Below are positions 4,408 through 23,551 of a stretch of 64,000 bases of DNA, piece after piece. Below the pieces are notes generated by a model. The model saw only the letters and a program-made list of their open reading frames with translations, had not been told where the DNA came from and searched no databases. Source of the stretch: Erysipelotrichaceae bacterium (lineage in GTDB: Bacteria > Bacillota_I > Bacilli_A > Erysipelotrichales > Erysipelotrichaceae); NCBI GenBank assembly GCA_015058845.1, contig SVBO01000001.1, positions 3,934 through 67,933 of the forward strand, written 5' to 3'. Each line of letters begins with the position of its first letter. Position 1 is the stretch's first letter. The position numbers and the translations under genes are program-made.

Positions 4408-5274
4408 CTACTCTCCTAAGAACTTCTTGATCTCTTCTATTCTCTCTAATGCTACTGCTCTACCGATCTCATAGACTACTTGTAGTGTATTAGGATCTTT
4501 CTCTACTCTACCAATAGGTAGTTTCTCATTAGGTCTAATGACATATACTTCTCCTGCTTTTTCTTTCTCTAGAATATACTGGATCGTTTCGTTATACATG
4601 ATATGTCTATTAGCCATGGCTTCTACTAACTTTGGATATTGTTTATATTTACGTTTAATGATCGGCATTAATCCGTTTGGTTCTTTGATATATCCTTGTG
4701 GTTGTGTGAGTACTACGATGTTCTTGTTATATCCTAGGGATTCAAAGTGTTTTAGTGGAATAGAATCAGCAATTCCTCCATCTAGTAGTTTCATGCCATC
4801 TATCTCTACGATCTTAGAGACGACTGGCATCGCAGATCCTGCTCTGATCCAATCTAGTCCTACTTCTACACCCTGGTCTTCAAACTTCCAGTATACTGGC
4901 TCTCCTGTTTCGATATTAGTACATGTAATATAATATTCCATAGGATCTTGTAGATATGTTTCATAGTCGAATAGGTCATGTACTAATGGTACTTCTTTGA
5001 AGCAGAATTCTGCACTGAATAGATTACCAGTCTTTAAATAAGAATAGATCCCACCATATCTCTTATCATTACAGAAACGCTTATTATATCGGATCCCTCT
5101 ACCAATTTGATGAGATTTATAATTCACACCAACACCAGCCCCTGCACTTACACCGATCGCTCCATCCAGTACGATCCCATGCTCCATCATGACATCAATG
5201 ACACCACATGTGAACATGCAACGCATAGCACCACCTTCTAATACTAACCCCTTCTTGATCATTTCCTCACGCAT
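4408..5274 (-). CDS. patatin-like phospholipase family protein
   Basis: 288 aa. Oxyanion motif LEGGAMR, nucleophile elbow GVSAGA, DGG near the C-terminal half. Confidence 0.85.
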   Translation of the reverse strand: MREEMIKKGLVLEGGAMRCMFTCGVIDVMMEHGIVLDGAIGVSAGAGVGVNYKSHQIGRGIRYNKRFCNDKRYGGIYSYLKTGNLFSAEFCFKEVPLVHDLFDYETYLQDPMEYYITCTNIETGEPVYWKFEDQGVEVGLDWIRAGSAMPVVSKIVEIDGMKLLDGGIADSIPLKHFESLGYNKNIVVLTQPQGYIKEPNGLMPIIKRKYKQYPKLVEAMANRHIMYNETIQYILEKEKAGEVYVIRPNEKLPIGRVEKDPNTLQVVYEIGRAVALERIEEIKKFLGE

Positions 5275-5353
5275 ACTAACACCTTCTTTATTTGTTATCT
5301 TTTAATATAACTGAATCAGAACTAGAATGCAAGATAAGGCTAAAGAAAGACAC

Positions 5354-5385
5354 AAAAGGTATGACTCTGTATCAAAGCCATACCT
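5354..5385 (-). terminator. intrinsic terminator after the 99-aa ORF
   Basis: aggtatg/catacct stem followed by TTTT on the minus strand. Confidence 0.5.
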
Positions 5386-5396
5386 CTTAGTTACTA

Positions 5397-5696
5397 TTAC
5401 TTTTTCTTCTCGAATCTCTTCTTACCGTTTTCGTCTACACCAAGTAAATATAATTGCCAGTCTAGAACACCAGTCATTAACTTCTCATTCTCATCAGCAG
5501 CGAATTTCTTACGCCATTCTACTAACTTTTTAAGTTGAGCAGCTTCATCTCCTCTACTGAAGTCGATATCTTGATCTTCTAAGAACTTGAAACTGATCCA
5601 AACTTCTGGTGCAACGAATAGGTCGCTGTCACCCATTACTTGATCTCTTTTTACTTTGTCTTGGTACATTTTCCAATATTGTTCTGAAACACTCAC
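5397..5696 (-). CDS. hypothetical small acidic/basic protein
   Basis: 99-aa ORF with an RBS-like aaggaggaatt upstream and its own terminator. No motif recognised. Confidence 0.5.
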   Translation of the reverse strand: MSVSEQYWKMYQDKVKRDQVMGDSDLFVAPEVWISFKFLEDQDIDFSRGDEAAQLKKLVEWRKKFAADENEKLMTGVLDWQLYLLGVDENGKKRFEKKK

Positions 5697-15053: not shown

Positions 15054-15512
15054 CTAGTATTTACTTATGTAAGCTTTGATCGTATGGAGTTTCTTCTCTT
15101 GATAAGTATTGGAACTAACGATATCTTTATCCTTTATAAATCTTCTACATCCACAACTTCTAGTAGAACCTTGCGTTAGATTCGTATAACTAACAATTGA
15201 ATTATTCCCACAATCACACTTGCACTCCCAATATGTCACACCATTCTTTCTCTCAGAAAACTTAGTTACAACAAGTTTACCAAATCTCTGCCCACTAATA
15301 TCTATAAACTTATTTCCATTTATTTCAATATATGTATAAGGCGATTTCTGTATTAAATATAACTCTTTTCTTGTTTTCTCAACTATTTTTCCGCAGTCAG
15401 ATCGGCATTTCCATATAATATTTCTATTCTTTCGTTTGTCAGTAGGCTCTAATACAGTTAGATCCCCAAATTTCATACCGACAATAGATCGTTTATTACT
15501 TACCATTTTCAC
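15054..15512 (-). CDS. hypothetical protein with two tandem Cys-rich (zinc-ribbon-like) repeats
   Basis: Repeat 1 is GMKFGDLTVLEP..IWKCRSDCGK. Repeat 2 is GQRFGKLVVTKF..YWECKCDCGN..GSTRSCGC. Confidence 0.6.
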   Translation of the reverse strand: MKMVSNKRSIVGMKFGDLTVLEPTDKRKNRNIIWKCRSDCGKIVEKTRKELYLIQKSPYTYIEINGNKFIDISGQRFGKLVVTKFSERKNGVTYWECKCDCGNNSIVSYTNLTQGSTRSCGCRRFIKDKDIVSSNTYQEKKLHTIKAYISKY

Positions 15513-15548: not shown

Positions 15549-17783
15549 TTACTTAACGATATAACGTAATGCTCTAGTTGTAGTATCTACTACTTCAAAT
15601 CCACTTGGAAGAGTTAGAGTAGAACCATCACTTAATACGATATCTTTTAATGGGAATAAGTATGAATCTGTACCATCACTGATTCTCATGTATGCAAGAT
15701 ATGAACCAGTAGCCATTCTTGTAGCTGCTGTATTACCTACATAATTATTGATATCTGTATTAGAGAATGTAACTGTATAGTTAGCATAATCTAGCTTATA
15801 TGCTCCATTACCTGTAGCTGTCATGTTCTTATTTAACCATGTGTTATATACTGGTGTTACTTGCTTACGATATGCTTTTGCCATTGAGTAATCTTCTTCA
15901 TTTACGAAGATAATTTCTCTCCAGATAGAGTTTTCGTTATCTAGGTTAGCATTAGCCTTAAACATATATCCATCTACTGTAATAGAACCATTAGCTGTAG
16001 AGATATTAGTTACACGTGAGTTTGTATATACTGGTAATTGGAAGTCAGCATAATCACTTAGATCTGTGTTATTTACTGGTTCTTCTACTTTTGTATATAC
16101 TGCTGTGATTGTAGTAGCTGTTCTAATATTTTCACCATCATGATCCCATTCACCTACATATCCTTCTTTTTCAGGTACTTCTGGCATTCTAATATCTGCA
16201 CCCTTAGTGACTCTATATGTTCTCCATACTTTACCGTCTACGATGAATTCTACAGTTGATTTAGGAGCTTCTTTTTCAGTTACATAGAAGTTACCATTAG
16301 CATTTTTATTGACTTCGTAACCAGATGGAATGAAAGAATTAATATTAGCATTTGTTGGTTCAGTATTAGATTTTGATGGATCAAATCCAATGAATGTACC
16401 ACCATATACTTCAATGCTAGCAGTACCAGCTAAAGCACTACCATCATATAGATTTAATGTAAAGTTACGGTCATTACTACTAAACCAACCATCATTGATA
16501 ACTACTTTTGCAGAATTAATGTTTTCTCCACCAGCATAGATCAATTCAGCACCAGTTGTATTAGTTACGTTTGGATCAACGCTATCTGTATTGAAGAATT
16601 TACCATCTTTAATAGTTACTTTTCCTTCATTTGCCCATACAGCGATTGTACCATTGCCATCAGAAGTAGTTGCATCAATAGCACCTAAACCATTTGAAGA
16701 ATCATTGATTGATAAGTTAGCACCTTCTACAACTTTTAATACTGCTTTGCTAACCGATTTGTCCCAACTATTATCAACAGACAATGTTTTACCATTTAAA
16801 TCTAATGTTACATCTTTATCTACAATTAAAGTTTTCGATAAAGCAATATTGCTATTAAGAGTAATTTTTCCGCCTTCAGTTACTGAAGTAATCGCATCTT
16901 GTAACGATCCATAGTGATTATCATCAAATTTAACACGATCAACAACGTACTCTTCAATCGAAGTCTCTTTTCCATTAACATCGATAGCCTTAGAATTTAC
17001 AATTTCAAGATCAGACTTACCATCTAACCATGTAGTTGCACCATTATCAACAAGTGTAACATTAGCAATTTTAGTCTTGCCCCAAAAATTAGCACCCGCA
17101 TAACCACTTTGTTTATTTTCAAATCTTGTTCCATCAATTGTTAATAGGGAAATTGATGCAGCAAAAGCATTAAACCCATCAATACTACCACCATTGATTA
17201 CTACTTTACCTGAACCACTATCATAGTGAATACCATAAACACCACCAGAGATTTCACAATTCTCATATGTGTGAACTCCATTTACACGACCCCAACGAGT
17301 AACATTTTTTGTAGTCATAAGTAAAGAATCTTTAATTGTAAGGTTCTTTGCTTCTGGTTTGATAAGTGGACTAGCTGTACCTGTTATGTAACAGTTTTCA
17401 ATCGTAATGTTATCACCACCGAAAACTGAAGATTGAACCGCATCTTCTAAAACAAGGTTTTTAAGTGTGATTGTATTGCCGTTTGTTTCGATTTTACTAA
17501 CCTTTGTTGTAGGTTCGCCATTAGTATTTGTCATACCTTCAATAGTAAGGTTTCCCTTTGTGATTTTTGGCATTTCTACAACACTGGCAGAAATTAACTG
17601 GATTACATCACCTTCATCTGCAGCATTGATTGCAGATTCTACTGTATCATATTCAATTCCAGTATCCACAATTTTAGCTACATTTTCATTACTTTCGGCA
17701 GCAACTTCCACTGTAGGCATTACTCCAATAACCATAGCAAGAGCAACTACTACAGATAATAATCCTTTGAATAATTTATTCAT
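15549..17783 (-). CDS. secreted/surface protein with right-handed beta-helix-like repeats and a Listeria-Bacteroides-type repeat
   Basis: 744 aa. Signal peptide MNKLFKGLLSVVVALAMVIGVMP. Repeated N/G/T-rich beta-helix-like segments. FIVDGKVWRTYRVTKGADIRMPEVPEKEGYVGEW resembles the Flg_new/InlB B-repeat. No LPXTG. Confidence 0.75.
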   Translation of the reverse strand: MNKLFKGLLSVVVALAMVIGVMPTVEVAAESNENVAKIVDTGIEYDTVESAINAADEGDVIQLISASVVEMPKITKGNLTIEGMTNTNGEPTTKVSKIETNGNTITLKNLVLEDAVQSSVFGGDNITIENCYITGTASPLIKPEAKNLTIKDSLLMTTKNVTRWGRVNGVHTYENCEISGGVYGIHYDSGSGKVVINGGSIDGFNAFAASISLLTIDGTRFENKQSGYAGANFWGKTKIANVTLVDNGATTWLDGKSDLEIVNSKAIDVNGKETSIEEYVVDRVKFDDNHYGSLQDAITSVTEGGKITLNSNIALSKTLIVDKDVTLDLNGKTLSVDNSWDKSVSKAVLKVVEGANLSINDSSNGLGAIDATTSDGNGTIAVWANEGKVTIKDGKFFNTDSVDPNVTNTTGAELIYAGGENINSAKVVINDGWFSSNDRNFTLNLYDGSALAGTASIEVYGGTFIGFDPSKSNTEPTNANINSFIPSGYEVNKNANGNFYVTEKEAPKSTVEFIVDGKVWRTYRVTKGADIRMPEVPEKEGYVGEWDHDGENIRTATTITAVYTKVEEPVNNTDLSDYADFQLPVYTNSRVTNISTANGSITVDGYMFKANANLDNENSIWREIIFVNEEDYSMAKAYRKQVTPVYNTWLNKNMTATGNGAYKLDYANYTVTFSNTDINNYVGNTAATRMATGSYLAYMRISDGTDSYLFPLKDIVLSDGSTLTLPSGFEVVDTTTRALRYIVK

Positions 17784-17883
17784 TTTCTTCCTCCTTTTGT
17801 ATATTTACTTCGATAACTCTTTTCCCGGTATAACGATATTATCCGGAACTATTACAGACTGGATACCTTCAACTTAAGAATAT

Positions 17884-17976
17884 TCATACTAACCAGTTCT
17901 GTAATACTAAGCAGCAACAAACTAGAAGATCTGTTATAACTATCTTTAGAATGTTCTGCTGTTTTTCTTCCTCCAT
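17884..17976 (-). CDS. possible 30-aa leader ORF MEEEKQQNILKIVITDLLVCCCLVLQNWLV
   Basis: ATG at 17976 lies 4 nt after AAAGGGGG. Sits in the 220-nt leader between IR-A and the surface protein gene. Too short for the ORF track. Confidence 0.25.
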   Translation of the reverse strand: MEEEKQQNILKIVITDLLVCCCLVLQNWLV

Positions 17977-18005
17977 AGCACCCCCTTTGTTTTATACAAA
18001 CATAC

Positions 18006-18035
18006 TTCACAACATAATAATCATTATGTTGTGAA
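18006..18035. repeat. IR-A: lox-like site TTCACAACATAAT-AATC-ATTATGTTGTGAA
   Basis: 13-bp inverted arms around the asymmetric 4-nt centre AATC. Confidence 0.8.
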
Positions 18036-18214
18036 ATAGATTTAGTTTATATGATTGCTTTATAAATCAGCACCAGAATCAACCAAAAAAACACATGAGA
18101 AAAAAAGCTCTCTGACTCTTTGTAAAAAAAGTAACAGAGGGCTTACTTGTGTTGTTTGTAATTTTTATATTTGATACATCATATATCGATTTTTACCTAT
18201 AATTGTAATTCATC

Positions 18215-18243
18215 TTGAATTATATATGTTTTAAGAGTAAAAT
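18215..18243 (+). promoter_or_regulatory. candidate sigma-A promoter TTGAAT-N17-TAAAAT inside the putative invertible segment
   Basis: The hexamers currently point away from the surface protein gene and would point toward it after inversion. The context is AT-rich, so it could be chance. Confidence 0.3.
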
Positions 18244-18266
18244 TAAAAAGTACAGATCAATACCTT

Positions 18267-18292
18267 TACCACATAATGATTATTATGTGGTA
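18267..18292. repeat. IR-B: lox-like site TACCACATAAT-GATT-ATTATGTGGTA, inverted relative to IR-A
   Basis: Its reverse complement shares an 18-nt perfect core ACATAATAATCATTATGT with IR-A (22/24 overall). Ends 4 nt from the recombinase stop codon. Confidence 0.8.
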
Positions 18293-18295
18293 TTT

Positions 18296-19135
18296 TTATA
18301 TGACTAATCCTAATTTTTCAATTTTTCGACGATGTTCAGTGCAAGTTGTCATTATATATATTCTTGTTGTTTCTATATTACTGTGACCAAGAATATCAGC
18401 TAGCTTTGCTATATCTTTTTCGATTGTATAAAATGTTCTAGCAAAGAGTTTACGTAAATTGTGAGGGAATACTTTTGATGCTGCCACATGCGCTTTTTGA
18501 TATAGTTTTTTCATCTGAGACCATATATTGCTACGATCAAGTGGGTTGCCATTACGGGTTATGAATATACATCCCTTACCTATACGTTTCTTCAATGCGA
18601 AAGTTAGTAATCTTTTTCTTAAAGAAGATGGTACTAAGATTGTACGTATTTTACCTTTTAATCTGATTTCTATTTCTCCATTTTTTATAGCTTCTACTGT
18701 GAAGTATTTCAGTTCAGATACTCTAATACCAGTACTACAGATCGTTTGAAGTATCAAGGACAACTGATCATTATTATTTGCTGCTGAAAGTAAGCGCATA
18801 TATTCTGATTTGGTAAGTTCCTTGCTTTCTGAACAATAGGTTTGCTTTTGCACTCTAAGACTTTTCACAACGCAATCAGGTAAACTAATAAATTTTAAAA
18901 ATGAATTGACAGATGCTAGCATTGAATTAATAGAACGAATTGCATACTTGTTTGCCTCCAAATGTCTCTTGTATTCAACCACAAGCACTTTAGTAATAGG
19001 TATGTTATAAGCGTATTCAATAAAAGCTTTTACATCACGTCTGTACTTTTCTATTGTCGCTTTACTTTTCTCCTCTAATGCAAGAAAAGCACAAAAATCG
19101 TTTAAATCATGGTATGTTACTGTTTTTTCTTCCAT
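18296..19135 (-). CDS. tyrosine site-specific recombinase (XerC/D-integrase family)
   Basis: Catalytic pattern GIRVSEL (R), HNLRKLF (HxxR), LGHS (H), TRIY (Y). Start set at MEEKTV (19135), preceded by AAAGGAG; the track ORF starts at 19210. Confidence 0.9.
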   Translation of the reverse strand: MEEKTVTYHDLNDFCAFLALEEKSKATIEKYRRDVKAFIEYAYNIPITKVLVVEYKRHLEANKYAIRSINSMLASVNSFLKFISLPDCVVKSLRVQKQTYCSESKELTKSEYMRLLSAANNNDQLSLILQTICSTGIRVSELKYFTVEAIKNGEIEIRLKGKIRTILVPSSLRKRLLTFALKKRIGKGCIFITRNGNPLDRSNIWSQMKKLYQKAHVAASKVFPHNLRKLFARTFYTIEKDIAKLADILGHSNIETTRIYIMTTCTEHRRKIEKLGLVI

Positions 19136-19379: not shown

Positions 19380-20063
19380 TTAACGATTAAGAATAAGTTC
19401 AGTTAACTTAACAGGATCTACGATCACTCCATCCTTGTAAACACGCATATTACCAGAAGCGATCTCATCGATTAAAATTACTTCATCATTGTTATAACCA
19501 AACTCAAACTTGATATCCCAAAGTTGAAGACCAATAGAAGCAAGATCATCAGCCACGATCTTAGTGATCTTTAATGTTTGTTCCTTCATGCTCTTGAACA
19601 TTTCTTCACTCATAACACCTAGAGCAGCTAATCCCTCAGAAGTAACTAGAGGATCTCCCTTAGCATCATTCTTGAATGTACATTCAACATATCCACCTTC
19701 TAATGGAGTACCATCAGCAATATATTCCCCATAACGACGAACAAAGCTACCAGTAGCTACTAAACGGCAAATAACCTCTAGACCATGACCAAATACTGTA
19801 GCAGGTAATACTTCCATAGTAGCCTCTTCAATATTAGCAGAAACATAGTGAGTCTTGATACCAGCTTGCTTTAATAATTCAAAATAGTGGATAGAAGTCT
19901 TTAGATTCTCACGACCGATACCCTCGATAGTAAGACCAACAGTATTCTCACCTGGATCAAATACACCATCTTTACCAGTGCAATCATCCTTGAATTTTAG
20001 TAACACATTCCCATTCTCTAAGCTATAAACATCTTTTGTTTTTCCTTCGTAGATCTTCTTCAT
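19380..20063 (-). CDS. purC: phosphoribosylaminoimidazole-succinocarboxamide synthase
   Basis: [13 protein letters not shown].. N-terminus typical of PurC. GAGGAGG RBS before the ATG at 20063. Confidence 0.9.
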
Positions 20064-20160
20064 GAAAACTCCTCCTCGAATTTTACGTAAATAATTTAAC
20101 ACACCATCTAAAATCTTACAATACATTAAATAAAAAAACTTATTTATGCCCTAAATATCA

Positions 20161-20190
20161 TTGAAATAAATACATGAAATAAGATATAAT
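20161..20190 (+). promoter_or_regulatory. promoter TTGAAA-N18-TATAAT of the fhs-pur operon
   Basis: Near-consensus hexamers immediately upstream of the riboswitch. Confidence 0.6.
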
Positions 20191-20196
20191 ATATAC

Positions 20197-20268
20197 GGTT
20201 ATACAACTGACGGATAAGTGGAATCAACCACATGAAGTATAATCTGTAAAGAGTCGACCGTCTGGGCT
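20197..20268 (+). ncRNA. ZTP (pfl motif) riboswitch aptamer
   Basis: P1 GGTTATAC/GTATAATC. ACTGACGG..AAGTGGAATCAACCAC hairpin. 3' element CGACCGTCTGGGC matches the conserved CCGCCUGGGC. The pseudoknot pair GACGG/CCGTC covaries relative to the consensus GGCG/CGCC. Upstream of fhs and purH, the classical ZTP regulon. Confidence 0.75.
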
Positions 20269-20306
20269 AAAAAGAGGGTCAGACGTACGCTCTTTTTTGT
20301 TTTTTA
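20269..20306 (+). terminator. riboswitch expression-platform terminator
   Basis: AAAAAGAGGG-tcagacgta-CGCTCTTTTTTGTTTTTT. GGTCAGACG can alternatively pair with the CGTCTG of the aptamer 3' element. Confidence 0.65.
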
Positions 20307-20335
20307 TTTCACATAAGAAAAGGAGAAAAAGAACA

Positions 20336-22006
20336 ATGTTAACAGATGTGGAAATTGCTCAAAGCACTATTATGAATCCGATCAAGGAGATCGCAGCTAA
20401 GGTTGGACTTACAGAGGATGATCTAGAATTGTATGGTAAATACAAAGCTAAGATCTCTATGGAAACTATCCAAAACCTACAAGCTAAGAAAGATGGTAAA
20501 TTGATCTTAGTCACAGCGATCAACCCTACTAGCGCAGGAGAAGGTAAGACTACTACTATGATCGGTCTATCTCAAGGATTGAATGCACTAGGAAAGAATG
20601 CAGTTGTAGCTATGCGTGAACCAAGCTTAGGACCATGCTTTGGTGTTAAGGGTGGTGCCGCTGGAGGCGGTTATGCGCAAGTAGTACCAATGGAAGATAT
20701 CAACTTACACTTTACAGGAGATATCCATGCTATCACAGCAGCTAATAACTTAATTGCTGCTATGTTAGATAACTCTATCCATCAAGGTAATCCATTAAAT
20801 ATCGATACTCGTCAGATCGTATGGAAGAGATGTGTAGACTTAAATGACCGTGCTCTTCGTTATATTACTTGTGGTCTTGGTGGTAAGACAAATGGTGTTC
20901 CTAGAGAAGATGGTTTCGATATCACTGTAGCTAGTGAAGTTATGGCTATCTTATGTCTTGCTACTTCTTTAGAAGACTTAAAGGAAAGAGCTGGTCGTAT
21001 GATCGTGGCTTATACTTATGATGGTAAGCCTGTAACTGTAAATGATATTCAAGCTACTGGTGCTGTAACATTATTATTAAAGGATGCTATCAAGCCAAAT
21101 ATGGTACAAACATTAGACCATAATCCAGTATTAGTACATGGTGGTCCATTCGCTAATATCGCTCATGGATGTAACTCAGTAATCGCTACTAAGCTTGCAT
21201 TAAAGCTTGGGGATTATGCTATTACTGAAGCTGGTTTCGGTGCTGACCTTGGTGCTCAAAAGTTCTTAGATATCAAGTGCCGTCAAGCTGGATTAAAACC
21301 AGATGCAGTAGTGATCGTTGCTACAGTACGTGCATTAAAGATGCATGGTGGTGTTGCTAAGAAAGATCTTGGTGTTGAGAACCTAGAAGCTTTACGTGCT
21401 GGTATTGGTAACTTAGAAAAGCATATCGAGAATATTGCTAAGTATGGTCTACCAAGTGTCGTTGCTATCAATGCTTTCCCTACAGATACTCCAGCTGAAT
21501 TAGAATTATTACGTGAGATCTGTGCTAGCAAGGGTGTTGAAGTTGCTCTTAGTGAAGTTTGGGCTAAGGGTGCTGAAGGTGGTAAGGAATTAGCACAAAA
21601 GGTTATTGAAACATTAGAAACAAAGGAATCTAATTTCCATTGTTTATATGAATTAGAAAATCCTATCGCAGATAAGATCAAGACAATCGCTACTGAGATC
21701 TATGGAGCTGATGATGTGATCTTCTCTAAGAAGGTTGTAAATAAGATGAAGAAGTTAGAAGAACAAGGATTTGGGGATCTTCCTATCTGTATTGCTAAGA
21801 CTCAATACTCATTATCAGATGATCCTACATTACTTGGTCGTCCAACTGGCTTCAAAGTAAGTATCAATGATTTGATCGTTAATGCAGGAGCTGGTTTCGT
21901 AGTTGCGATCAGCGGTGACATTATGCGTATGCCAGGTCTACCAAAGGTTCCAGCTGCTGTAAATATGGATATTGATTCTAGTGGTAAGATCACTGGATTA
22001 TTCTAG
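20336..22006 (+). CDS. fhs: formate-tetrahydrofolate ligase
   Basis: MLTDVEIAQ.., [11 protein letters not shown]-loop, ~556 aa. Start at 20336 after AAAGGAG; the track extension overlaps the terminator. Confidence 0.92.
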
Positions 22007-22016
22007 GAGGGTACAA

Positions 22017-22505
22017 ATGAGAGTTGCAATTGTTATGGGTTCAACTAGTGACTTAAGCAAAGTAGAGAGCGCTGTTGACATTTTAAAAAACTATGGTGTG
22101 AAGGTAGACGTTAGATGTCTATCTGCACATCGTGCACATGAAGCTTTATCAGAGTTCATTGATGAGGCAAATCACAATGGAACAGAAGTGTTCATTGCTG
22201 CTGCAGGAATGGCTGCCGCTCTACCAGGGGTAGTTGCTTCACAAACTGTTTTACCTGTAATCGGGGTTCCTATTGCCGGTAGTCAATTGGATGGTATGGA
22301 TGCATTATTCTCTATCGTTCAAATGCCTCCAGGGATCCCTGTTGCAACTGTTTCTATAAATGGCAGTAAGAATGCTGCTTATCTAGCATTACAGATCATG
22401 TCTGTAAAGCATGAAGATATTAAAGAAAAGCTATGGCAGCATCGTGAAGAAATGAAACAAGCTGCTGAGAAAGCAAATCAAGAAATGATCGAAAAGTTCA
22501 ATTAG
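22017..22505 (+). CDS. purE: 5-(carboxyamino)imidazole ribonucleotide mutase / AIR carboxylase catalytic subunit
   Basis: MRVAIVMGSTSD, SAHR, AGMAAALPGVVA..PVIGVP motifs. AGGAGG RBS. Confidence 0.9.
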   Translation: MRVAIVMGSTSDLSKVESAVDILKNYGVKVDVRCLSAHRAHEALSEFIDEANHNGTEVFIAAAGMAAALPGVVASQTVLPVIGVPIAGSQLDGMDALFSIVQMPPGIPVATVSINGSKNAAYLALQIMSVKHEDIKEKLWQHREEMKQAAEKANQEMIEKFN

Positions 22506-22522
22506 AGAGGAGAAGAATAGTC

Positions 22523-23551
22523 ATGATGGATTACAAGAAAGCAGGAGTCGATATCGAGGCTGGTTATCAATCAGTAGAATTGATGAAGAAGTATGTTAAA
22601 GAAACTTATCGTAAGGAAGTATTAGGAGGCCTTGGTGGTTTCGCTGGTGCATTTAGTTTAAGTGCTATCAAAGATATGGAAGAACCAGTATTATTATCTG
22701 GTACTGATGGTTGTGGTACTAAAGTCAAACTAGCATTCGTTATGGATAAGCATGATACTATCGGTATCGATGCAGTAGCTATGTGTGTAAATGATATCGC
22801 TTGTTCTGGAGGAGAACCACTATTCTTCTTAGATTATATCGCATGTGGTAAGAACTATCCTGAAAAGATCGCTACGATCGTTAAGGGTGTTGCTGAGGGT
22901 TGTAAGCAATCTGAATGTGCTCTAGTAGGTGGAGAAACTGCTGAACATCCAGGTCTAATGCCTGTAGATGATTATGACTTAGCTGGTTTTGCTGTGGGTG
23001 TTGTTGATAAGAAAGATATTATCGATGGTTCTAACATCCAAGCCAATGATGTACTAGTAGGTATTGCTTCTAGTGGTGTGCATAGTAATGGATTCTCATT
23101 AGTTCGTAAGGTATTTGAAATGACTAAGGAATCTTTAGATACTTACTATGATGCTTTAGGTAGAACTCTTGGTGAGGCTTTAATTGAACCAACTCGTATT
23201 TATGTTAAGGCATTAAAGAATGTTAAGAATGCAGGTGTTACTATTAAGGGATGCAGTCATATTACTGGTGGTGGATTCTATGAGAATGTTCCACGTATGC
23301 TTCCTGAAAATAGAAGAGCTGTTATTAATAAGAATAGTTATGAAGTTCCAGCTATCTTCAAGATGATCGCTGAGAATGGTAATGTGGCTGAAGAGATGAT
23401 GTATAATACATTCAATATGGGTCTTGGTATGGTCATTGCTTTAGATCCTAAGGATGTAGATGCTGCTATGGAGGCTATTAGAGCTGCTGGCGATACTTGC
23501 TATGTAGTAGGTCATATCGTTGAGGGAGATAAGGGCGTGGATCTATGCTAA
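22523..23551 (+). CDS. purM: phosphoribosylformylglycinamidine cyclo-ligase (AIR synthetase)
   Basis: YKKAGVDIEAG.., GTDGCGTK, DYIA motifs. Confidence 0.92.
   Translation: MMDYKKAGVDIEAGYQSVELMKKYVKETYRKEVLGGLGGFAGAFSLSAIKDMEEPVLLSGTDGCGTKVKLAFVMDKHDTIGIDAVAMCVNDIACSGGEPLFFLDYIACGKNYPEKIATIVKGVAEGCKQSECALVGGETAEHPGLMPVDDYDLAGFAVGVVDKKDIIDGSNIQANDVLVGIASSGVHSNGFSLVRKVFEMTKESLDTYYDALGRTLGEALIEPTRIYVKALKNVKNAGVTIKGCSHITGGGFYENVPRMLPENRRAVINKNSYEVPAIFKMIAENGNVAEEMMYNTFNMGLGMVIALDPKDVDAAMEAIRAAGDTCYVVGHIVEGDKGVDLC

Follow-up and report, generated by a model that had tools for sequence, protein, structure and literature searches.

The stretch of DNA considered here, which we refer to as the window, comprises 64,000 nucleotides of contig SVBO01000001.1 from a metagenome-assembled genome (MAG) of an uncultured Erysipelotrichaceae bacterium (GCA_015058845.1). 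Read along the minus strand, a gene for a tyrosine recombinase is followed by a short palindromic site (site B), a 231-nt segment, a second such site (site A), a 222-nt leader, and the gene for a 744-residue secreted or surface protein (Table 1). The original prediction for this locus, made from the letters of the sequence, was that A and B are lox-like sites in inverted orientation and that the segment between them is a phase-variation inverton, the promoter of which currently points away from the surface gene.

Table 1. Features of the switch locus in window coordinates, with nucleotide identity to L026, a second assembly of the species (GCA_017533375). ORF, open reading frame; RBS, ribosome-binding site.
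Feature	Position	Strand	Sequence or size	Identity to L026	Remarks
ORF downstream of surface gene	15054..15512	minus	152 aa		Starts 36 nt after the surface gene; no Pfam or NCBIfam match
Surface protein gene (cargo)	15549..17783	minus	744 aa	75.6% (5' part)	Secreted/surface protein; N-terminal signal-peptide-like helix, beta-rich body
Fixed leader	17784..18005	minus	222 nt	99.5% (neighbours 76-90%)	From switch to surface gene; contains 30-codon ORF
30-codon ORF in leader	17884..17976	minus	MEEEKQQNILKIVITDLLVCCCLVLQNWLV		Strong RBS
Site A	18006..18035		TTCACAACATAAT-AATC-ATTATGTTGTGAA	100%	Putative distal recombination site; core 18012-18029, centre 18019-18022 (AATC on plus strand)
Putative invertible segment	18036..18266		231 nt between sites, 26% G+C	88.7%	Bounded by inverted sites
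Predicted intrinsic terminator	18100..18144	minus	GCCCUCUG...CAGAGAGC then U7		Faces the surface gene now
Promoter candidate	18215..18243	plus	TTGAAT-N17-TAAAAT		Points at the recombinase gene as sequenced and would point at the surface gene once inverted
Site B	18267..18292		TACCACATAAT-GATT-ATTATGTGGTA	100%	Putative recombinase-proximal recombination site; core 18271-18288, centre 18278-18281
Tyrosine recombinase gene	18296..19135	minus	279 aa	90.1%	Xer-like, presumed invertase; ATG after RBS AAAGGAG

Sites A and B have the sequences and positions first described for them, and the pair is far beyond chance expectation. The core ACATAAT-N4-ATTATGT is present in two exact copies in the window and in none of 100 dinucleotide-preserving shuffles. 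These remain the only two sites in the 64 kb when up to two mismatches are allowed, and they flank just the 231 bp. A repeat finder reports the pair as a 27-nt inverted repeat that is 89% complementary, with 229 nt separating the arms; the 18-nt cores are exact and lie 241 nt from core to core. The centre of B, which is GATT on the plus strand, reads AATC in the direction of the recombinase gene, so that the centres of A and B are mutually reverse-complementary and the sites are inverted copies, as had been claimed. The predicted asymmetric 4-nt centre is present, with the asymmetry carried by its outer pair only. Likewise, the inverted arms around an asymmetric centre that underlay the lox-like label are there, but both sites take the form ACnACATAA/T-N4-A/TTATGTnGT (slashes marking the borders of a 6-bp centre) and are better described as dif-like, in keeping with a Xer-like recombinase. 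Site B does adjoin the recombinase stop codon and site A does lie upstream of the surface gene; site B ends 3 nt from the stop codon, with its first base 4 nt past it, and site A is 222 nt from the ATG of the 744-aa gene.

The recombinase gene is complete and its product carries the expected R..HxxR..H..Y pattern. The protein scores 77 bits against Pfam PF00589 (Phage_integrase; cut-off 27.1, E 2e-21) and 37.3 against PF02899 (N-terminal SAM-like; cut-off 22.3). An alignment of 36 family members shows no variation at R138, H225, R228, and H251 and has Y260 conserved to at least 90%; K160 and K162, likewise invariant, are candidates for the catalytic Lys. The nearest NCBIfam models are XerA (138 against a cut-off of 220), XerD (106 against 330), and XerC (102 against 335), with XerS at 45.5 against 267. 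Since all of these scores fall under the curated equivalog cut-offs, the protein is Xer-like and not a Xer member. The closest solved structures are of XerA type (4a8e, 5hxy), and in an NCBI MAG the protein is annotated as "integrase [Erysipelotrichaceae bacterium]". More than 8000 database proteins match it at E <= 1e-20; among the matches listed, the top ones are about 65% identical and come from Lachnospiraceae, Oscillospiraceae, and relatives. The homologues surveyed below are 53-83% identical to it. The family is defined by a recombinase of roughly 279 aa, at least 55% identical to other members, with one site directly past its stop codon and a second, of reverse-complement centre, roughly 200-400 nt off; the window locus falls within this definition.

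We surveyed 93 related loci, 13 from a genome collection and 80 from metagenomes, for copies of the site. All 13 genome loci have an ACATAAT-N4-ATTATGT site 1-43 nt past the recombinase stop codon, and 78 of the 80 metagenome loci have one downstream of it; over the whole survey the gap is 1-62 nt, except in L088 (120 nt) and L058 (380 nt). Ten genome loci contain a second site at a spacing of 250-407 nt, and 61 metagenome loci contain at least two, with the partner 206-317 nt off. The single-site metagenome loci are mostly contigs that end inside the switch. In every two-site locus (10/10 and 61/61, or 71/71 overall, at 206-407 nt) the two centres are exact reverse complements, even though the centre itself varies from locus to locus, with 23 different centres in the metagenome set. 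Beyond the search core, conservation extends to positions -3/-2 (A, C) and +19/+20 (G, T), which indicates arms of about 10-11 nt, ACnACATAAT ... ATTATGTnGT. A centre that varies and yet always matches its partner is the pattern expected of a crossover region that the protein does not read, and not that of terminators or operators. In two pairs of loci, L080/L083 and L105/L106, the recombinases are 97.5-98% identical and the centres differ in both sites (CCAC/GTGG versus CTAC/GTAG in the first pair, GTCG versus CAGC in the second), which implies rapid concerted change of both sites, perhaps by way of heteroduplex repair during inversion.

A related architecture with a different type of site was seen in Pusillibacter faecalis pMM59_01 (NZ_AP023421.1, ~430260-430965; L109), where a more distant homologue, 48% identical to the recombinase, is followed by another 18-nt inverted repeat, GACAAAAACAACATTTCG ... 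CGAAATGTTGTTTTTGTC, the copies of which are about 250 nt apart and lie upstream of an SLH-domain protein. We also considered contigs that end in the switch as a sign of mixed orientation. Many contigs do end within 450 nt past the recombinase gene, but a similar number break off shortly before it on the upstream side; the argument was dropped because the contigs are simply short.

Direct evidence of inversion comes from two related lineages. Ten assemblies (L003-L012) share an identical recombinase, P0083, which is 65% identical to that of the window, and identical flanks. The ~256-nt segment beside it has one orientation in L003, L008, L010, and L012 and the opposite orientation in L004-L007, L009, and L011, and the inner half-sites are swapped exactly as a crossover within the core predicts. 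A third site at this locus delimits a 51-nt mini-segment, which is found at either end and in either orientation, so that all four arrangements with the promoter segment occur. The mini-segment is missing in L003, L007, and L008, as is expected from deletion between directly oriented sites. The three-site locus thus gives a shufflon-like set of states. This switch (~4840-5400) resides on a conjugative element with genes for a TraG-like ATPase, a sortase, and a CHAP protein, and an operon for a SipW-like peptidase and TasA/camelysin-like proteins lies downstream. The second lineage is represented by L094 and L101, whose upstream sequences match at 100%; aligned directly, the two segments share 57% identity, but inversion of one of them raises this to 98%.

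The same site has been catalogued from sequencing reads. In Table S5 of a study of invertons in the hCom2 gut community (Microbiome 2025;13:71, PMC11892184; preprint 10.1101/2024.06.01.596983), the repeats of "inverton group 139" are this site: ACATAAT-GATG-ATTATGTGGTAA in C. bacterium VE202-27, ACAACATAAT-ATTA-GTTATGTTGTA in Clostridium sp. D5, and centres of GTTA in Coprococcus comes, CTGC in C. sp. ATCC 29733, and CGAT in Hungatella hathewayi. The listed entries have a partner repeat with the reverse-complement centre, and both orientations have read support; one culture sample gave 102 forward and 254 reverse reads (PMC11892184). The group holds 33 invertons from 17 strains, 32 of them in Clostridia, and its link to the adjacent tyrosine "invertase group 35" is the most significant inverton-invertase association of that study (PMC11892184). 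The window locus resembles group 139 in its site, in the distance between repeats (~170-240 nt in the group), and in the adjacent tyrosine recombinase. It differs in its source, an uncultured Erysipelotrichaceae MAG, from the Clostridia isolates that supply 32 of the 33 members. Group 139 was built on repeat similarity and takes in members with different repeats as well, such as AAATCAATATTTC in Intestinimonas. As the group is catalogued with read support, the family is already known, and the window locus is a new Erysipelotrichaceae MAG member of it. We found no mention of the dif-like reading, the covariation of the centres, or the internal terminator in the text of the hCom2 paper, and no dedicated description of the site sequence, of SipW/TasA phase variation, or of dif-like invertons in literature searches for them.

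What the segment would switch is suggested by its contents. The promoter candidate points away from the surface gene, as originally described, and its position matches that of a promoter conserved among the relatives. There the promoter is often stronger and near consensus (TTGAAT/TTGATT/TTGACA-N17-TATAAT), it occurs in both orientations across the family, and the end of its -10 box is typically 36-59 nt from the site that it faces. Among the loci with strong-match promoters, 23 have it directed toward the recombinase and 11 toward the cargo. On the other strand, the segment holds a hairpin of -14.0 kcal/mol (z = -3.3) followed by seven U; a hairpin with a T-run is found at the same place in L026, L002, and L021, and weaker equivalents in L013 and L017. 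From these sequence features both elements are predicted to be active. A promoter scan of the fixed leader found no consensus promoter on the cargo strand. With the promoter directed toward the recombinase, a terminator directed toward the surface gene, and no promoter in the leader, the sequenced state would be OFF, which agrees with the original assignment.

The sites themselves may contribute to this logic. As sequenced, A and B are both perfect extended palindromes, and their hairpins (-17.6 kcal/mol for A, -12.6 for B) are flagged as terminator-like; on the plus strand, T5 follows the hairpin of site B. When inversion is simulated, both sites become hybrids and the hairpins weaken to -10.7 kcal/mol for the distal site, which then lacks a U-tract, and -4.7 kcal/mol for the other. 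A family rule of perfect palindromes in the OFF state was considered and rejected; it is true in the window and fails across the relatives. In 52 related loci, the stretch of coding strand from the recombinase stop codon to the proximal site is rich in A, averaging 6.4 A per 12 nt where the other three flanks average 3.4-3.6. Transcripts that leave the segment toward the recombinase gene therefore meet the proximal site as a hairpin with a T-run, which may serve the OFF-state promoter as a built-in stop.

Two observations concern the leader. An Rfam scan of 17500-18500 gave nothing near any gathering score, and the conserved leader therefore corresponds to no known riboswitch or small RNA. The start region of the 30-codon ORF within it repeats the RBS and start of the surface gene with 72% identity (17936-17974 versus 17756-17794), and the ORF may on this account be the remnant of the 5' end of an earlier cargo gene.

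The mechanism that we propose is as follows. The Xer-like recombinase would bind the four half-sites (ACnACATAA / TTATGTnGT) of the two dif-like sites and exchange strands across the 6-bp centres (T-N4-A), with the inner 4 nt giving each site its direction. A single enzyme would thus act on four similar half-sites, with cleavage probably falling at the borders of the centre. Because the centres of A and B are reverse-complementary and the sites are therefore inverted, the 231-bp segment would be flipped and not deleted. The segment would carry a sigma-70-type promoter toward one of its ends and, in the middle, an intrinsic terminator that works in one direction. In the OFF state, the promoter would fire toward the recombinase gene and meet the site B hairpin and T5, and the internal terminator would stop read-through from the recombinase gene toward the cargo. 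In the ON state, as simulated, the promoter would lie ~25 nt upstream of the weakened hybrid distal site and drive the 222-nt leader and the 744-aa gene. The inverted junction would be recognizable on the plus strand as 17990-18005 next to ...CAACATAATAATCATTATGTGGTAAAGGTATTG... / ...CATTATGTGGTAAAGGTATTGATC, together with the reciprocal junction. The 279-aa recombinase is proposed as the enzyme that would flip the segment; its adjacency to the site is conserved in the 93 loci, and the corresponding inverton and invertase groups are statistically linked in hCom2.

Taken together, the conserved association of the recombinase with the sites, the inversions seen in two related lineages, the published group 139 reads, and the position of the promoter support the inverton reading, and we hold with considerable confidence that the 231-bp locus is a promoter inverton that serves as a phase-variation switch for the surface gene. 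Inversion at this very locus is what we infer from the comparison with related loci. Several points weigh against the assignment. No copy in the opposite orientation was found, and the segment in L026 has the same orientation as in the window and is also OFF, in a comparison of two assemblies. An exact-match scan of metagenome contigs for the flank by site A returned no match; it missed even the source contig, so the metagenome collection is silent on orientation in this species. The promoter candidate matches the consensus at 9 of 12 positions, and such matches are equally frequent in shuffled sequence; in L026, moreover, the -10 box differs (TAGAAT). Each site is at present a perfect extended palindrome, which could mean that the present orientation predominates. 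Finally, that this recombinase acts on these sites is a prediction, and in other systems, such as RecV of C. difficile, the invertase works from afar.

The own-species comparison rests on the window and L026, the sole other readable assembly; the cluster mates are otherwise two 1-kb contigs, and the window itself is identical to a JGI metagenome contig. Housekeeping genes of L026 are 96.5-99% identical to those of the window. Comparing orientation in related genomes, which had been proposed as a check, showed both orientations in two related lineages and, in the species itself, the same orientation in both assemblies. That shared orientation, along with perfect extended palindromes that form terminator-like hairpins of -12.6 and -17.6 kcal/mol, is what one would expect of a fossil or locked switch, in which the segment no longer inverts in this species and the palindromes are left with no role other than that of RNA hairpins, terminators, or protein-binding sites. 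We consider this improbable. The sites are 100% conserved between the strains although the segment between them has diverged by 11% (88.7% identity), which shows them to be more constrained than all of their surroundings except the leader, and we count this purifying selection in favour of an inverton. The centres remain exact reverse complements and the recombinase is intact with all catalytic residues. Mere hairpin loops would have no reason to covary, yet the centres do so in 71 of 71 loci. Two assemblies are also far too few to speak against a minority orientation.

One further contig bears on the species. In L028 (Logan SRR28204461), a 1023-nt contig with a recombinase more than 90% identical to that of the window ends exactly at the last base of site B (…ATTATGTGGTA). 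An assembly at k=31 should survive a 26-nt palindrome, and mixed orientation or a strain mixture in SRR28204461 is therefore possible.

Slightly less probable still is that the segment inverts and its main output lies elsewhere, either in antisense control of the recombinase or in the orientation of the terminator only, as in cwpV. The OFF-state promoter does converge on the recombinase gene, its match to the consensus is modest, the segment contains a one-directional terminator, and the leader is conserved to an unusual degree and may hold signals of its own. However, a promoter at the same position, often near consensus, is conserved in both orientations across the family, and the scan of the fixed leader showed nothing promoter-like on the cargo strand. 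Most antisense transcripts should in any case be halted by the site B hairpin and T5.

The third alternative, that the recombinase and the surface gene form a small mobile islet, with the recombinase as its integrase and the palindromes as its attachment or resolution sites, draws on the low G+C of the islet amid purine-synthesis genes (32-34% versus ~38%), a divergence between strains far above that of the flanks, the public "integrase" annotation, and homologues on conjugative elements, but is very unlikely, because the only two sites in 64 kb are inverted and flank 231 bp rather than the islet, homologous loci invert a short segment while their flanks stay fixed, and no tRNA or typical target lies nearby.

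The promoter-inverton reading places the locus among several known systems. Like the sites of Xer/dif systems (XerA, XerH/difH, XerS/difSL, and E. coli XerCD/dif), those of the window have ~11-bp arms, ending in CATAA / TTATG, on either side of a 6-bp centre; XerA and XerD are the recombinases that the window enzyme resembles most. The E. coli dif site is GGTGCGCATAA-TGTATA-TTATGTTAAAT. Xer/dif systems use one site at the terminus for the resolution of chromosome dimers, whereas the window has two inverted sites 260 bp apart for a presumed promoter inversion, with no known link to FtsK. In the fimS switch of E. coli, an adjacent tyrosine recombinase (FimB/FimE) flips a ~300-bp promoter segment and thereby turns a surface structure on or off. 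The window likewise combines a short promoter segment, an adjacent tyrosine recombinase, and a surface gene; in fimS, by contrast, the repeats are 9 bp long, the two recombinases are short and biased in direction, and there are accessory sites for IHF and Lrp. Against the FimB/E-type model NF007370 the window recombinase gives 6e-06, far under the cut-off.

In the RecV switches (cwpV, flgB, cmrRST) of C. difficile, a Firmicute, a tyrosine recombinase again inverts a short segment that lies upstream of the gene for a cell-wall protein. In cwpV a terminator is part of the OFF logic, and the promoter lies outside the segment, unlike in the window. RecV is encoded far from its targets, of which there are many, and its repeats are imperfect, ~21 bp long, and not dif-like, again unlike those of the window. 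Cre/loxP and FLP/FRT are alike in having inverted half-sites around an asymmetric spacer that sets direction and must be identical in the two partners, and the natural centre variants of the present family parallel engineered lox spacer variants; the arms (13 bp), the spacer (8 bp), the recombinase clade, and the sequences are different. A further parallel is the Xer1/vpma system of Mycoplasma agalactiae (PMC2268961), in which a Xer-like recombinase encoded beside surface-protein genes makes site-specific inversions for surface variation, as proposed here. Xer1 shuffles several vpma genes against one fixed promoter, whereas the window has a small promoter cassette before a single gene. Erysipelotrichia are related to the Mollicutes.

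The cargo was originally called a secreted beta-helix protein. The signal-peptide-like N-terminus and the length of 744 residues bear out the first part of this description. The protein gave no significant Pfam, NCBIfam, or PDB sequence match, and its homologues contain SLH, Flg_new, Big_2, and Beta_helix domains. Its AF2 model (mean pLDDT 67) is beta-rich over residues 36-525. When this model was used for a fold search, the top neighbours were nearly all beta-helix proteins, all at E > 0.01; since no match is significant, "beta-helix" stays a weak label. The ORF that follows has two copies of a G-x-x-F-G-x-L-x-V ... W-x-C-x-C-D-C-G motif and, judging by the spacing, is possibly co-transcribed with the cargo. 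The surroundings are housekeeping genes, with purC, formate-tetrahydrofolate ligase, purE, and purM on one side and nitroreductase-like and YitT-family genes on the other; no tRNA or other typical integration target was found near the islet. Between the two strains the islet (15549-19135) is far more divergent, with the surface gene at 76% and the recombinase at 90% identity, than the flank with the pur genes (19380-23551; 96.5-99%). This divergence, together with the low G+C, suggests diversifying selection or cassette replacement.

In the relatives, too, the cargo is mostly secreted or at the surface: SipW-like S26 signal peptidases with TasA/camelysin-like (M73) proteins, often on conjugative elements, as well as BspA-type LRR, SLH/cohesin, collagen-like, and choline-binding proteins. 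In the metagenome loci (L029-L108), several cassettes stand before MmeI/Eco57I-type restriction-modification genes or genes for SPFH/Band-7 or DUF4379 zinc-finger proteins, which suggests phase-variable defence functions.

The variable centre allows a tentative proposal, which we put forward as a possibility that we would not yet favour. The 4-nt centre may be a private address: the invariant dif-like arms would be recognized by the enzyme and only matching centres would exchange strands, so that many cassettes, or a cassette and dif, could coexist without cross-recombination. Two cassettes on one locus were sought among the fetched loci as a test of such orthogonality, and none were found. 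If the proposal is true, what is in essence a single enzyme is already served in nature by dozens of site variants that are orthogonal to one another, given at least 23 centres and recombinases 98% identical with different centres. The comparison of the family also suggests a natural set of orthogonal sites for engineering.

Nothing here overturns current understanding. What these observations add to the catalogued family is a description of its parts, namely dif-like half-sites, a 6-bp crossover region with free but partner-matched inner 4 nt, and a layout of promoter plus terminator. They also provide a search rule that needs no reads: a recombinase homologue followed by ACATAAT-N4-ATTATGT, and a partner site with the reverse-complement centre. 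The recombinase, promoter, and terminator appear as a portable cassette that fronts diverse cargo, from SipW/TasA-like fibre operons to BspA-type and SLH proteins and type IIG restriction-modification genes. For the uncultured Erysipelotrichaceae bacterium itself, the 744-aa surface protein is very probably phase-variable, and its 76% identity between strains is as expected of an exposed antigen or receptor.

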